A stretch of DNA of 44,935 bases, taken from a virus. Shown here one piece after another: positions 2,649 to 43,679 of the stretch (position 1 is the stretch's first letter; each line of letters begins with the position of its first letter). Position numbers and translations under genes: made by a program. The notes beneath the pieces were generated by a model, which saw only the letters and a program-made list of their open reading frames with translations, was not told where the DNA came from and did not search any database. The stretch lies in the UHGV virus genome UHGV-0175244. The stretch is one strand, 5' to 3'.

Positions 2649-3008
2649 ATGTTAAAGCTGTTCGCTCGCTACGCTTCAGTTGGGGCGGTTAACACTCTCA
2701 TTCACTGGATAATTTTTGCTGCTCTTTACTCACAGGGCTTCAACCAGTCGATGTCAAACTTTGCGGCCTTCTGTTGCGCGGTAACCTTTTCATTTTTCGC
2801 AAATGCCAAGTGGACATTTGACGCTGAGACCACCACGTTTCGCTACATAATTTATCTTTTCTTTATGGGCGGCATGGCATCTGCAGTTGGAATGTATGCG
2901 GACAGGTCGCACTCCAGCCCTGTTATTACGCTTATTGCTTTTTCTGCCATCAGCATGGTGTGTGGATTCATTTATTCAAAGTACATTGTTTTCAAGGATA
3001 GAGGATGA
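2649..3008 (+). CDS. gtrA: GtrA, bactoprenol-linked glucose flippase
   Basis: 120-aa 4-TM protein ([20 protein letters not shown]...) typical of GtrA. AGGA SD before the ATG at 2649. ATGA overlap with gtrB. Confidence 0.85.
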
Positions 3009-3934
3009 AAATATCCCTTGTCGTTCCGGTATTTAATGAAGAAGACGCCATAACCATTTTCTATAGGGAAATCCGTCATTTTCAGCCCTTCCAGGGGGAA
3101 GAGGTTGAAATTGTCTTTGTAGATGACGGTAGCACTGACTTCACTGCTGTTCTGATGAAAGAGATGGCGCAGGAAGATAGTCTGGTCAAAAACATATTCT
3201 TTACTCGCAACTTTGGTAAAGAAGCTGCGTTATTTGCTGGGCTAGCAGAGGCCAGCGGCGAGGTGGTAATACCTATAGACGTGGACCTTCAGGACCCGCT
3301 GGAAGTCATTCCGCGCATGATTGAGAAATGGCGAGAAGGGGCTGATGTTGTTCTGGCAAAGCGCATGGATAGGTCTTGCGATAGCTACCTCAAGAAAAAA
3401 AGCGCTGAATGGTTCTACCATCTTCACAACTTAATCAGTAATCCTCAAATTGAAGAGAACGTAGGCGATTTTCGTCTTATGTCCCGAGAAGTTGTCGAAC
3501 ACATCAAGCTGCTGCCTGAGAGAAACCTTTTTATGAAGGGGATACTATCCTGGGTAGGTGGTAAGACAGATGTGGTTGAATACGTAAGAGCCGAAAGAGC
3601 CGCAGGAAAAAGTAAGTTTAATGGCTGGAAGCTTTGGAATCTGGCGCTTGAAGGGATAACGAGTTTTTCTACCTTCCCGCTGAGAATGTGGACGTATATC
3701 GGTCTCTTCGTAGCCGGTTGCTCATTTTTTTATGGGGCATACATGATTGTGGATACCCTTTGTTTTGGCAATCCGGTGAAGGGATATACATCGATAATGG
3801 TATCGATGCTATTCCTTGGCGGCGTTCAGCTGATAGGTATTGGAGTGCTCGGCGAATACATTGGCCGCATTTACATCGAAACAAAGAACAGACCAAGATA
3901 CATTACGAAAAGGGATAATGTTGAACATGAGTGA
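3005..3934 (+). CDS. gtrB: GtrB, bactoprenol glucosyltransferase (GT2)
   Basis: 309 aa. The N-terminal GT2 fold ([13 protein letters not shown]...VDDGSTD...DVDLQDP) and two C-terminal TM segments are typical of GtrB. Confidence 0.9.
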
Positions 3935-26719: not shown

Positions 26720-26794
26720 TGGAGCATCTGGCGGGGATCGAACCCGCATATTCTGGTTGGAAGCCAGACGTAATTACCAAACTACGACAGATGC
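26720..26794 (-). tRNA. Phage-encoded tRNA-Gly (anticodon UCC)
   Basis: A hand-folded cloverleaf gives acceptor GCATCTG/CAGATGC, D stem GTAG/TTAC, anticodon stem TCTGG/CCAGA with loop CTTCCAA, T arm GCGGG-TTCGATC-CCCGC, discriminator U and an encoded CCA. Confidence 0.8.
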
Positions 26795-35469: not shown

Positions 35470-35703
35470 TTAGGCCGCAGTATCACGCGGCGATGCGAAT
35501 ACCAGGCTTTCTTTGAGGACCGGAGCCTGGCGGTGAAAATTCTTCGTGCCTTTTTCGATAGCAGATGCCATTTCTGGAGATGCCCGGCGATTTCCGTAGG
35601 CAATCTGGTCCAGGTAACCTGGCGTCGTGTTAGCCAACTTTGCGAGCTGTGCCCATTCGTCGGTAGTGGCGGCCTTGCGCCAGCGGTGTAGTTCAGTGCT
35701 CAT
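35470..35703 (-). CDS. Cro/YdaS-like HTH regulator
   Basis: 77 aa with an HTH (WAQLAKLANTTPGYLDQIAYGNRRASPEMASAIEKGT). It is divergent from cI across the operator cluster. Confidence 0.7.
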   Translation of the reverse strand: MSTELHRWRKAATTDEWAQLAKLANTTPGYLDQIAYGNRRASPEMASAIEKGTKNFHRQAPVLKESLVFASPRDTAA

Positions 35704-35735
35704 TGTTGTCTCCGGGTGAGTCGTTTAATTTGGAG

Positions 35736-35801
35736 TTTAGCGTTATGCTAAATACTACGCAAGCATCATTTAGCAATTTGCACATTTATCATTCTGCTAA
35801 A
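35736..35801. promoter_or_regulatory. OR-like operator cluster with candidate pR and pRM
   Basis: Perfect 17-bp palindrome TTTAGC-N5-GCTAAA at 35736-35752. Degenerate copies at 35769-35785 and 35785-35801. Minus-strand TTGCTA-16-TATTTA (35776-35749) is a candidate pR. Confidence 0.6.
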
Positions 35802-35819
35802 AGCAGTAACAATGCAGGG

Positions 35820-36497
35820 ATGGAAAATAAAGAAATCAGAAAAGCCAACCTGGAAGCGCTGTACGAGAAACGTCAGCACGAATCTGGAATGACCAAGGCG
35901 CAGTTCGCCGAGCTCATCGAGACAAGTCCGGCTGCGCTTAGCCAGCTACTGGGACCAAACCCTCATCGCAATATCGGCGATAAGATGGCTCGCAAAATTG
36001 AAACTGCGCTTGATCTGCCTTTTGGCTGGATGGATGTTTTACACGCCAGTGAAGAACCTTCGAACGTTGCATTTCGAGGACTTAACGAGATAAAAGGAAG
36101 TTATCCTGTGATCAGCTGGGTAAGCGCGGGGCAATGGATGGAAGCTGTAGAACCTTATCACCGAAGAGCGATAGATCGCTGGTATGACACGACCGTTGAT
36201 TGTTCAGAAGATTCATTCTGGCTTGACGTTAAAGGGGATTCTATGACCTCCCCGGCCGGACTGAGCATACCAGAGGGAGCAGCGATACTTGTTGATCCTG
36301 AAGTCGAGCCGCGCAACGGAAAGCTGGTTGTCGCGAAGCTAGAAGGCGATAACGAAGCGACCTTTAAGAAGCTTGTAATCGATGCCGGCAGACGCTTCCT
36401 TAAGCCACTTAACCCCGCGTATCCAATGCTAGAAGTTAATGGAAACTGCAAAATTATTGGCGTTGTGGTCGATGCAAAAATACTAAACATCCCATAA
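35820..36497 (+). CDS. cI: CI-like prophage repressor (HTH + S24/LexA-type autopeptidase)
   Basis: 225 aa from ATG 35820, with an N-terminal HTH and C-terminal GDSM...K (WLDVKGDSMTSP...ATFKKL). Confidence 0.85.
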   Translation: MENKEIRKANLEALYEKRQHESGMTKAQFAELIETSPAALSQLLGPNPHRNIGDKMARKIETALDLPFGWMDVLHASEEPSNVAFRGLNEIKGSYPVISWVSAGQWMEAVEPYHRRAIDRWYDTTVDCSEDSFWLDVKGDSMTSPAGLSIPEGAAILVDPEVEPRNGKLVVAKLEGDNEATFKKLVIDAGRRFLKPLNPAYPMLEVNGNCKIIGVVVDAKILNIP

Positions 36498-36580: not shown

Positions 36581-36657
36581 TTAATCAAAAAGCTAAATAA
36601 AATCCGCCAATAATTTAGCATTTTGCTATTGCGCATAATTTAGCATCACGCTAAATT
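36581..36657 (+). promoter_or_regulatory. OL-like operator cluster and candidate pL (TTGCGC -17- TAAATT)
   Basis: Perfect TTTAGCatcacGCTAAA at 36639-36655 lies between -35 (36629-34) and -10 (36652-57). Degenerate copies at 36614-36630 and 36581-36597. Confidence 0.55.
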
Positions 36658-36721
36658 TACCCCATCGAAACGAAACATCGACAGCTGAGCGAAGTTAGCC
36701 AGCGGCGGATAGCGAGTCGCC

Positions 36722-36733
36722 TGCTCATTAAGA
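36722..36733 (+). promoter_or_regulatory. boxA-like element (TGCTCATTAAGA; compare rrn boxA TGCTCTTTAACA)
   Basis: It lies ~60 nt downstream of the predicted pL start. 10 of 12 positions match rrn boxA as I recall it. Confidence 0.35.
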
Positions 36734-36815
36734 ATTCAGTCAAGCAGCAAATCACCCGGAGCGCTCCTGGCAAATTGAAATGGCGCCCAATGGGATTGAG
36801 GCAGGTGTGTAACGC

Positions 36816-36995
36816 GTGGCGGGTATAGCACACGAAGAGGACTCCGCACCGGAATGGTTTGCTGCTCAGTTCCCGAACATCGGGGAATCTTCAGTGGGAA
36901 TGTTTTGGGATTGGATGAATGCGCAGGCTGATGCGCGGGGTGGAGCGGCCCGGGTGGCTACTGAATCAAGACAGGCTGTAAGACAAGCTGTGTAA
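36816..36995 (+). CDS. Possible 59-codon acidic Trp-rich ORF (GTG start), first ORF of the pL operon
   Basis: (M)AGIAHEEDSAPEWFAAQFPNIGESSVGMFWDWMNAQADARGG... Codon choice looks enteric. The SD is weak and the ORF falls below the track threshold. Confidence 0.3.
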   Translation: MAGIAHEEDSAPEWFAAQFPNIGESSVGMFWDWMNAQADARGGAARVATESRQAVRQAV

Positions 36996-37161
36996 ATAAC
37001 TGGTAAGCCGTAGTAGCCAATAAAGCAGGTGAAAATCATAACGTCTATCCCGCTTCGGCGGTGGCAGCTAACACCTGTGATAGTCAATGCCGGAGATCAG
37101 CGCCGGCCATCCAATCACCAAAGCATTTCGATTCATCAACCCACGCAACAAAGGAGCTTCT

Positions 37162-37216: not shown

Positions 37217-37241
37217 AAACCCCGGCGATGTCGGGGTTTTT
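37217..37241 (+). terminator. Rho-independent terminator (tL1-like)
   Basis: AAACCCCG-gcgatgt-CGGGGTTT followed by TT. Confidence 0.7.
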
Positions 37242-37247
37242 GGTGAG

Positions 37248-37350
37248 TGCTTTGGGTTGGCAGACGGTTATCAGCTAGTTGGTGAGGTAATGGCTCACCA
37301 AGGCGACGACGACCTTCCCCGCTTCATTGTGGGGAGCCAGCGCCAAAGCA
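37248..37350 (+). ncRNA. Structured RNA element: 14-bp closing helix plus 16S-rRNA-helix-11-like hairpin plus second hairpin
   Basis: 37248-37261 pairs with 37336-37350 (one bulge, one G-U). Hairpins at 37279-37301 and 37316-37335. 37273-37309 matches 16S rRNA from memory. Confidence 0.4.
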
Positions 37351-37389
37351 TTTCTCCCGCATCAGCGGGTAACGACAGAGGGTAAGGCG

Positions 37390-37557
37390 ATGAGAAACAC
37401 AACAGATAAATATGCTGCCGAGTGCAGTGAAGATTACAGGCAGTATCGCAAAAAATGTCGAGCATCAGTGCGTGGTGATGGGTTTCATGACCTTTGGGTA
37501 AAGCTGGCATGGATGTGCCGACGCAACGCACGAGAATGGATTAACAGAGCCGCCTAA
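37390..37557 (+). CDS. Small basic hypothetical protein (55 aa)
   Basis: MRNTTDKYAAECSEDYRQYRKKCRASVRGDGFHDLWVKLAWMCRRNAREWINRAA. GAGGGTAAGG SD. A terminator follows. Confidence 0.55.
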   Translation: MRNTTDKYAAECSEDYRQYRKKCRASVRGDGFHDLWVKLAWMCRRNAREWINRAA

Positions 37558-37571
37558 CCAGCGGCTTTTTT
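37548..37571 (+). terminator. Rho-independent terminator (tL2-like)
   Basis: AGCCGC-ctaacca-GCGGCT followed by TTTTT, overlapping the stop codon of the 55-aa ORF. Confidence 0.7.
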
Positions 37572-37707
37572 CATACCTCAGTCGCTTCACCGAGGCGGCT
37601 TAGTTATGACAATCGGCGGCCATCCACCGCCCATTGAAACACTGAATAAATGCGTTGAAGTCTTGTATTAACCGTTCGGCGGCGCGGCCTTAAGCGCGGA
37701 GATGATT

Positions 37708-43601: not shown

Positions 43602-43647
43602 ATGGCACGCCCTACAGGATTCGAACCTGTGACCTACGGCTTAGAAG
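43602..43647. repeat. attR: att core within the intact tRNA-Arg gene
   Basis: Identical to 1804-1849. Confidence 0.92.
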
Positions 43648-43679
43648 GCCGTTGCTCTATCCAGCTGAGCTAAGGGCGC
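43603..43679 (-). tRNA. argU: tRNA-Arg (anticodon UCU), argU-like
   Basis: 77 nt GCGCCCTTAGCTCAGCTGGATAGAGCAACGGCCTTCTAAGCCGTAGGTCACAGGTTCGAATCCTGTAGGGCGTGCCA. It folds as a cloverleaf and is close to E. coli argU as recalled. Confidence 0.92.

Follow-up and report, generated by a model that had tools for sequence, protein, structure and literature searches.

Imitation of ribosomal RNA (rRNA) sites is already established for cellular ribosomal-protein leaders, in which rRNA-mimicking structures serve autogenous control by S4, S8, S15, L1, L20 and other proteins (Meyer 2018, as cited in PMC7247131). Among phage transcripts, the lambda N leader is described as highly structured, with RNase III modulating N translation (as cited in PMC5725501). 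In 16S rRNA itself, helices 7 and 11 (h7 and h11) form the domain to which uS17, a primary 30S assembly protein, binds (PMC4604426, PMC5591316), and the binding sites of uS20 and uS4 lie elsewhere than h11. Here we analyze UHGV virus genome UHGV-0175244, a stretch of 44,935 nucleotides (nt) that we refer to as a whole as the window, and in which positions 37244-37354 hold an RNA element built around a copy of 16S h11. A first-pass annotation, made from the sequence alone and without database searches, had singled out this segment (37248-37350), the letters of which it read correctly. We find that the element belongs to a family of structured RNA modules that is widespread among phages and whose invariant part is a faithful copy of 16S h11, comprising its internal loop, its 8-base-pair (bp) stem and its GGUAAYGG-type loop. 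The h11 phage module appears to be a previously undescribed family of viral rRNA mimics.

As in ribosomal-protein leaders, a structure borne on a messenger RNA imitates the rRNA site of a ribosomal protein and, in the scaffold represented by the window (type A), the mimic lies just 5' of a ribosome-binding site. Unlike these leaders, however, the h11 module is phage-encoded and does not lie beside any ribosomal protein gene, it is a near-exact rRNA copy instead of a loose imitation of a few nucleotides, and in some phages it forms a small RNA unit of its own. The ribosomal-leader survey reports none for uS17. With the h7/h11/h12 junction of 16S rRNA (Rfam RF00177) the element shares 37-43 nt of identity, the secondary structure of h11 and a hairpin in the position of helix 12 (h12), but it spans about 100 nt as opposed to about 1540 nt, lacks h8-h10 and the remainder of the molecule, is closed by an artificial helix and resides inside phage operons. 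The resemblance to the lambda N-leader RNase III site and to the precursor 16S (pre-16S) stem lies in its location between the nutL boxA and the gene in the N position, on an antiterminated transcript, and in the long stem enclosing a structured domain. In contrast to those stems, the one in the window spans 17 bp with one bulge (about 24 bp if the 7-bp hairpin P3 stacks on it) and its cleavage is predicted, and many members of the family have short closing helices or lie outside N leaders. Set against these precedents, an rRNA helix that is copied almost exactly in phages, without linkage to ribosomal protein genes and with uS17 as its putative target, is likely to be new.

Identity and fold of the helix 11 copy

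The 37-nt sequence AGCTAGTTGGTGAGGTAATGGCTCACCAAGGCGACGA, at 37273-37309, occurs a single time within the window, and no match to it with up to three mismatches was found in 100 dinucleotide shuffles. An exact scan with this 37-mer, covering one genome per bacterial species, returned at least 120 matches, and all 120 listed matches fall, with 37/37 identity, within true 16S genes, in agreement with the identity to 16S h11 that the first-pass annotation had put forward. Carriers among the matches listed include Pseudomonas, Shewanella, Vibrio, Pseudoalteromonas and Marinobacter, as well as Bradyrhizobium, Brevundimonas, Clostridium, Streptomyces, Chloroflexi, Gemmatimonadales and others. Attribution of the variant to Pseudomonas, Aeromonas and Shewanella had therefore been too narrow, and, because the exact 37-mer is present in the 16S rRNA of many phyla, the window sequence is best taken as the widespread bacterial consensus form of h11, not as a Pseudomonas-type variant. 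The accompanying claim that it is not the variant of the host stood up to comparison, since 37270-37309 is just 90% identical by BLAST to E. coli 16S genes (95% to a Salmonella 16S). Identity extends to 43/43 nt (37269-37311) in 19 of the 120 listed 16S loci, those with visible titles belonging to Streptomyces, Rhodoluna, Plantibacter, Ornithinimicrobium, other Actinomycetota, Gemmatimonadales and a metagenome-assembled genome of Patescibacteria, and the base of the window copy (TATC...CG) is of the type found in actinobacterial and Gemmatimonadales 16S genes.

The element lies outside any full-length 16S gene or rrn operon: its flanks are phi80-like pL leader sequence and no 16S signature follows downstream. 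It yields no match to the bacterial small-subunit (SSU) rRNA model of Rfam (RF00177), either at the gathering score or at E-values up to 10, and no family of Rfam 15, whose curated families include IsrK and rydB, overlaps 37245-37354 even at E-values up to 10. A literature search for a phage rRNA mimic likewise found no description of such an element, in line with the earlier statement that none was known.

Folding of 37244-37354 predicts, in both the minimum free energy and the centroid structures, a three-way junction composed of a closing helix (P1), the h11 copy and a second hairpin (P3), with a minimum free energy of -57.2 kcal/mol versus -34.6 ± 3.5 kcal/mol in shuffles (z = -6.5). This recovers the junction drawn in the first-pass annotation with a slightly longer closing helix, in which 37245-37261 pairs with 37336-37353 over 17 bp with a bulged G at 37342. 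The 5' strand of P1 (37245-37261, plus strand, as are all parts of the element) is supported by the fold and by the RNAalifold consensus of 25 type A sequences, and the phi80 N-leader stem has the same outer part, GAGTGCTTTGGG. A 4-nt linker (AGAC, 37262-37265), unpaired in both the fold and the consensus, leads into the h11 copy (37266-37314), which is delimited by the 37- and 43-nt identities, by the fold and by the top match of a covariance model described below. The copy consists of a GGTT/GACC base, a UC/GA step, an internal loop with strands AGCUAG and GGCGACGA, a GCU/GGC helix, the 8-bp stem (37279-37286/37294-37301) and the 7-nt loop GUAAUGG. Hairpin P3 (37316-37335) occupies the position of 16S h12 and directly adjoins the 3' strand of P1 (37336-37353), which contains CCAAAGCATTTC, repeated at 37118-37129 (direct repeat D2), and is 96% identical to the phi80 sequence just upstream of N.

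A family of helix 11 modules on unrelated scaffolds

In isolated phage genomes, BLAST matches to the 121-nt region fell into two groups, namely 16S contaminants and genuine phages with an embedded h11 segment, the latter surrounded by phage sequence and located on the sense strand of the local genes. Isolated carriers comprise Yersinia phage vB_YenM_30.14, Shewanella phage Y11, Streptomyces phages Omar and Stella, Stenotrophomonas phages Paxi and Piffle, Escherichia phages ZCEC13 and CWW26, Klebsiella phage SBP, Serratia phage Muldoon and Cronobacter phage VP8, so that their hosts span enterobacteria, Yersinia, Shewanella, Stenotrophomonas, Serratia and Streptomyces. A scan of IMG/VR with a degenerate h11-core pattern identified at least 120 stretches; the 120 listed stretches and the earlier isolated-phage loci amounted to 128 pattern matches, none of them with the downstream 16S signature that was sought, and three additional pattern scans contributed only four new loci. 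Overall, the module is present in about 130 IMG/VR contigs and some 15 isolated phages. In a covariance model search with the 49-nt h11 module (R1), every locus presented exactly one match, at 46.8-76.1 bits, with the window copy scoring highest (76.1 bits) and everything else at or below 15.4 bits. The same search revealed no additional h11 copy of diverged sequence in the window, in phi80, in T4 or in scaffolds lacking h11, and Rfam searches on 16 related loci returned only tRNA, SSU fragment and hammerhead matches.

Several records call for separate treatment. Moraxella phage Mcat16 (KR093640), the IMG/VR locus L082, a pattern match that is chimeric with authentic E. coli 16S, and many short INPHARED records contain genuine 16S sequence through contamination or misassembly, and such records must be kept apart from true h11 modules during screening. 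True modules, in turn, can be taken for contaminating 16S when they occur in viral contigs, and their annotation is often that of a hypothetical protein. Positions 1-130 of the IMG/VR contig L012 are 16S-like past h12 and, with deletions, through h13- and h14-like sequence up to GGCAGCAG, after which the sequence is unrelated; the contig starts inside the module, leaving its 5' side out of view, and it may be either a longer mimic or a partial chimera.

The module occurs in at least six different scaffolds. Type A includes the window, other lambdoid enterobacterial phages and a Yersinia variant, while type B and its short form (Bs) share the closing helix GTTGTGGTG/CACCACAAC, type B with an additional 5' hairpin in the position of h7. 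Type C, found in marine contigs, is closed by GTTTGGAT/ATCCAAAC, and the remaining scaffolds are a Shewanella type, the actinophage type D and four singletons (L079, L081, L073 and L110). In nearly all of them P1 precedes h11 and P3 follows it, with a gap of 0-1 nt between P3 and the 3' strand of P1, and the sequences of P1 and P3 are unrelated from scaffold to scaffold. When flanks were shuffled, just 2-8.5% of trials per lineage regained this architecture, scored as a P1 of 6 bp or more and a P3 of 4 bp or more with no more than 1 nt between P3 and the 3' strand of P1.

Within type A, RNAalifold on 25 sequences yields the same three-way junction, with compensatory changes in 8 of 37 pairs. 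Direct MAFFT alignment across scaffolds misplaced P1 and P3, and the cross-scaffold alignment was hence built from folded segments with N padding, which fits it to the structure. For 22 sequences representing all scaffolds, 97% of cells in this alignment pair, a value inflated by the fact that P1 and P3 columns were picked by folding, compared with 72% in column shuffles and 29-52% in slid controls. Two-sided changes affect 18 of the 28 pairs, distributed as 6/6 in P1, 5/5 in P3, 4/6 in the h11 base and 3/11 in the upper stems of h11 (GCU/GGC and the 8-bp stem), and the internal and terminal loops of h11 are invariant or nearly so across lineages. The covariation of closing helix and second hairpin that had been put forward as a test of the element is thus present in related loci, in many phages that conserve h11, and the fold and covarying flanking helices bear out the view of a structured RNA mimicking h11 instead of a free-lying sequence. 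Two types of h11 base helix occur among modules, a proteobacterial GATT/TC and an actinobacterial TATC/CG. Since scaffolds differ and both base-helix types are represented, the sequences suggest repeated independent capture from rRNA and hence strong selection.

These data bear on whether the module has any function as RNA. A neutral fossil of recombination with rRNA, an assembly chimera or a segment of a coding gene could be invoked in view of the public phage records that hold real 16S (Mcat16 and L082) and of the ORF (open reading frame) that spans the element in type A. The module, however, has phage sequence on its flanks both in complete phage genomes and in over 120 independent contigs, and the scaffold helices covary; recurrence in many phages and covariation led us to reject the fossil of illegitimate recombination that the first-pass annotation had left as an option. 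A single frame is open through the h11 core, and stops close it at or inside the h11 edges in types B, C and D and in L079; the 118-aa ORF across the window element matches no PHROG family. Taken together, a fossil, chimeric or coding origin is highly improbable. The annotation had also doubted that the spanning ORF is a protein, and the missing PHROG family and the stops elsewhere agree with this, but its argument that the ORF runs through an intrinsic terminator does not hold: the hairpin CCCCGGCGATGTCGGGG followed by TTTTT (37218-37241, plus strand), directly 5' of the element, gave a weak terminator-like Rfam alignment, was not called in a simple terminator scan and merely resembles a terminator.

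The most complete copies are found in Streptomyces phages, where the Rfam SSU_rRNA_bacteria model matches Stella and Omar with 85.4 and 68.4 bits, respectively (gathering score 50), over model positions 106-311. Alignment with a Streptomyces 16S gene reveals that these versions keep GAGUAACACGU, the h7 base, h11 and h12 with its CCUGAGAGGG loop, that the h7 tip and h8-h10 are swapped for a short capped stub, and that they diverge past h12. The Streptomyces-phage copy is a miniature of 16S nt 106-311, made up of the 106-121 junction, a tetraloop-capped h7 stub, h11 and h12, its third arm being a true h12 look-alike with the CCUGAGAGGG loop. It has the look of an h7/h11/h12 junction trimmed by design to a minimal construct, and such natural minimal constructs could serve studies of early 30S assembly. 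Reduction goes further in the three-way junction of the window, where P1 and P3 take the places of h7 and h12. At the right end of the Omar genome (L004, 1717-2957), four type II hammerhead ribozymes (41-48 bits, gathering score 37) sit between small ORFs, downstream of the mini-16S element and on the same strand.

Candidate ligands and mode of action

Because the loop and internal-loop sequences of the module are fixed, its stems covary and its scaffolds are interchangeable, it is expected to be recognized as h11 by some factor, and the published assignment of h7 and h11 as the uS17 binding domain makes uS17 the favored ligand. We tentatively propose, with a confidence somewhat short of an even chance, that the element is an RNA that binds uS17 as a decoy or sensor, and that RNase III probably releases it. 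According to this proposal, the most probable factor to recognize the RNA as h11 would be free uS17. RNase III would cut the 17-bp stem that P1 forms and that stacks on P3, giving rise in type A to a stable RNA of about 95 nt; such release is plausible because a P1 stem downstream of boxA is reminiscent of the stems that RNase III processes in the lambda N leader, and a long closing stem also recalls the RNase III-processed stem of pre-16S rRNA. Acting in trans, the RNA might sponge newly made uS17 and thereby damp host 30S assembly, while in cis, within the type A leader, it might couple expression of the first pL gene to the pool of free uS17.

Binding of uS17 would mean that phages manipulate or monitor ribosome biogenesis by means of an RNA decoy, a route of host takeover not described before. 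A more ambitious version, in which the phages of several bacterial phyla devote an RNA to mimicking the uS17 docking site, make it in bulk from antiterminated or tRNA-type units and capture newly made uS17 with it, strikes us as rather doubtful. If true, it would provide the first viral RNA that targets ribosome assembly or reads the ribosome-building state of the host, and the first extraribosomal ligand or partner for uS17, a protein whose sole mention in a 2024 review of extraribosomal functions is as an entry among the primary binding proteins. Even with another ligand, the module would constitute a new and phylogenetically broad family of phage non-coding RNAs.

Several observations weigh against uS17 capture. 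Release by RNase III cannot be general, as P1 spans just 7-10 bp in several lineages, and the short type B form lacks the h11 base helix. In the ribosome, uS17 also contacts helices that are missing from most versions of the module, and the benefit that sequestering or sensing uS17 would bring to both lytic and temperate phages is not evident. The choice of P1 and P3 columns by folding, noted above, biases the percentage of paired cells in the cross-lineage alignment upward. Lastly, the same scaffolds also occur with inserts that lack rRNA similarity, so that the insert may be an interchangeable structural plug.

The same combination of conserved loops and internal loops with covarying stems would be expected of a decoy or bait for another h11-recognizing factor, be it an rRNA-directed antiphage nuclease or toxin, a factor for ribosome assembly or quality control, or a protein that the phage encodes elsewhere. 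Precedents exist in pseudo-ToxI, anti-CRISPR repeat RNAs and phage tRNAs that evade anticodon nucleases, where a copied host or defence RNA could titrate its protein, with the difference that the RNA copied here is a ribosomal RNA helix. We know of no defence system, toxin or assembly factor that recognizes or targets h11, and none targeting it turned up in the literature searched, in which the only documented h11 ligand is uS17. The occurrence of the module in lytic and temperate phages of several phyla would fit counter-defence, and evasion of retron effectors by phage tRNAs is described in PMC11555353. Clustering of all ORFs within 3 kb of about 130 elements, all against all, nonetheless identified no protein family common to different scaffold types, ruling out a conserved partner protein in the vicinity, and genes downstream of modules are phage genes of at least 30 kinds, none encoding a ribosomal protein. 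On balance, we consider a decoy for a factor other than uS17 unlikely.

Direct interference with host rRNA folding was also considered. Strands of the mimic, at a 90% match to E. coli 16S, are nearly complementary to the strands of host h11 and could pair in trans with nascent h11, misfolding the 5' domain. The intramolecular hairpin, however, is very stable, the match to enterobacterial h11 is imperfect in the stem, and conservation is highest at unpaired loop positions that this model does not need, all of which make it very unlikely.

Genomic setting and carrier scaffolds

The window is a mosaic lambdoid phage, nearest to temperate phages of Klebsiella and Enterobacter. Its genes include those for a cI-like repressor (35703-36497, plus strand), for Cro-like and CII-like proteins on the opposite strand and, downstream, for a RecT-type annealing protein. 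A region homologous to phi80 from the pL -10 region to the nutL boxA (36657-36734, plus strand; 92% identity to the annotated phi80 region) sets the direction of transcription over the element, and further phi80 homology comprises the sequence immediately upstream of N (37338-37393) and the N end with the tL1A region (37548-37677). The leader end (37355-37392, plus strand), consisting of the hairpin CCCGCATCAGCGGG, the Shine-Dalgarno sequence GAGGGTAAGG and an ATG at 37390, is the same in phi80 upstream of N. The pL/nutL boxA and N-leader end homologies agree with the sense orientation relative to pL assigned in the first-pass annotation. On this basis, the element is predicted to be transcribed from pL, within the pL leader between nutL and the N-position gene, and it would cap the apex of a long phi80-type N-leader stem, just before the ribosome-binding site of that gene. 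The outer helix of this stem (GGGAATGTT.TGGG/CCAAAGCATTTC) is common to the window and phi80.

This placement could also point to a purely cis-acting leader element, that is, a processing, stability or folding module of antiterminated operons in which h11 is a self-folding plug without an rRNA ligand. At the same stem apex, phi80 holds a different insert without rRNA similarity, and a second cassette in the window (36898-37131) combines the same outer helix with a different cargo. At 71 type A loci, the same leader end, with its hairpin, Shine-Dalgarno sequence and start codon, runs into no fewer than 30 different first genes, a phi80-type N among them. Of 5426 complete E. coli genomes, about 500 match parts of the type B scaffold, and the three loci that we inspected carry other inserts of 35-75 nt in the h11 position (L256 1500-1650, L257 1510-1650 and L258 1430-1540). 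These loci are unannotated and lie between a Q-like antiterminator and a holin or in an early-left operon, and the type B scaffold has the appearance of a modular carrier whose RNA arms can be exchanged. No rRNA similarity was detected by BLAST against 120 rrn loci in the 36898-37131 cassette of the window, the phi80 N-leader insert or the E. coli inserts. A plug, however, would need neither 37/37 identity to rRNA nor loop and internal-loop sequences fixed across six scaffolds and several host phyla while stems covary. Actinophage versions moreover copy 16S 106-311 in detail, and some members are stand-alone, terminator-ended units or lie among tRNA genes, outside leaders. We therefore regard a purely cis-acting role as improbable.

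Contexts in other lineages are diverse. The L079 module is located between a cI-like repressor and an N-like antiterminator, those of types B and Bs and of L081 between a Q-like antiterminator and holin/endolysin genes, and that of type C between two virion genes, and the Paxi and Muldoon modules lie among tRNA genes. In ZCEC13 and in one Bs locus an intrinsic terminator follows 30-80 nt past the module on the same strand. These contexts are heavily transcribed and largely untranslated, which suits a stable RNA product.

Two described groups of phage RNAs were compared with the module and set aside. The Muldoon module lies in a T4-like tRNA cluster, which prompted a comparison with T4 stable RNA species 1 and 2 (rnaC and rnaD), but local alignment to the Muldoon member scored 39 against a shuffle mean of 38, and the T4 tRNA region contains no R1 match. 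For the Pas small RNAs of enterohaemorrhagic E. coli prophages, which are also encoded between Q and holin, no sequence match to the scaffold was found in the paper describing them.

The second leader cassette of the window (36898-37131) lies upstream of the element and is bounded by the same outer helix (GAATGTTTTGGG.../...CCAAAGCATTTC), whose 3' strand is repeated exactly at 37118-37129 and 37343-37354. It holds two hairpins typical of type B, GCGCAGGCTGATGCGC and GCCGGAGATCAGCGCCGGC, and about 145 nt of cargo; its fold has a z-score of -3.2, and part of it gave a weak match to Rfam rydB (19.1 bits, below threshold).

An ORF of 55 aa (37390-37557) takes the N position of phi80, between the N-leader end and the tL1A homologue; it matches no PHROG family and has no similarity to phi80 N, and, despite the presence of a boxA-like sequence, none of the window ORFs tested was identified as N-like. 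Two 19-nt repeats (ATAATTTAGCAT...GCTA, 25 nt spacing) at 36610-36653, immediately upstream of the phi80-like pL -10 region, are probably oL operators for the cI-like repressor. In three short type B loci (L035 at about 2985-3010, L086 and L124), fragments resembling a tRNA T-arm and acceptor (e.g. GGGTTCGAATCCCTAC) directly precede the scaffold; ARAGORN detected no intact tRNA genes adjoining short type B elements, and these T-arm-like fragments could be att-site remnants or processing signals. The window itself contains two tRNA genes, at 26723-26794 and 43606-43679, both on the minus strand (Rfam tRNA, 59.6 and 72.0 bits).

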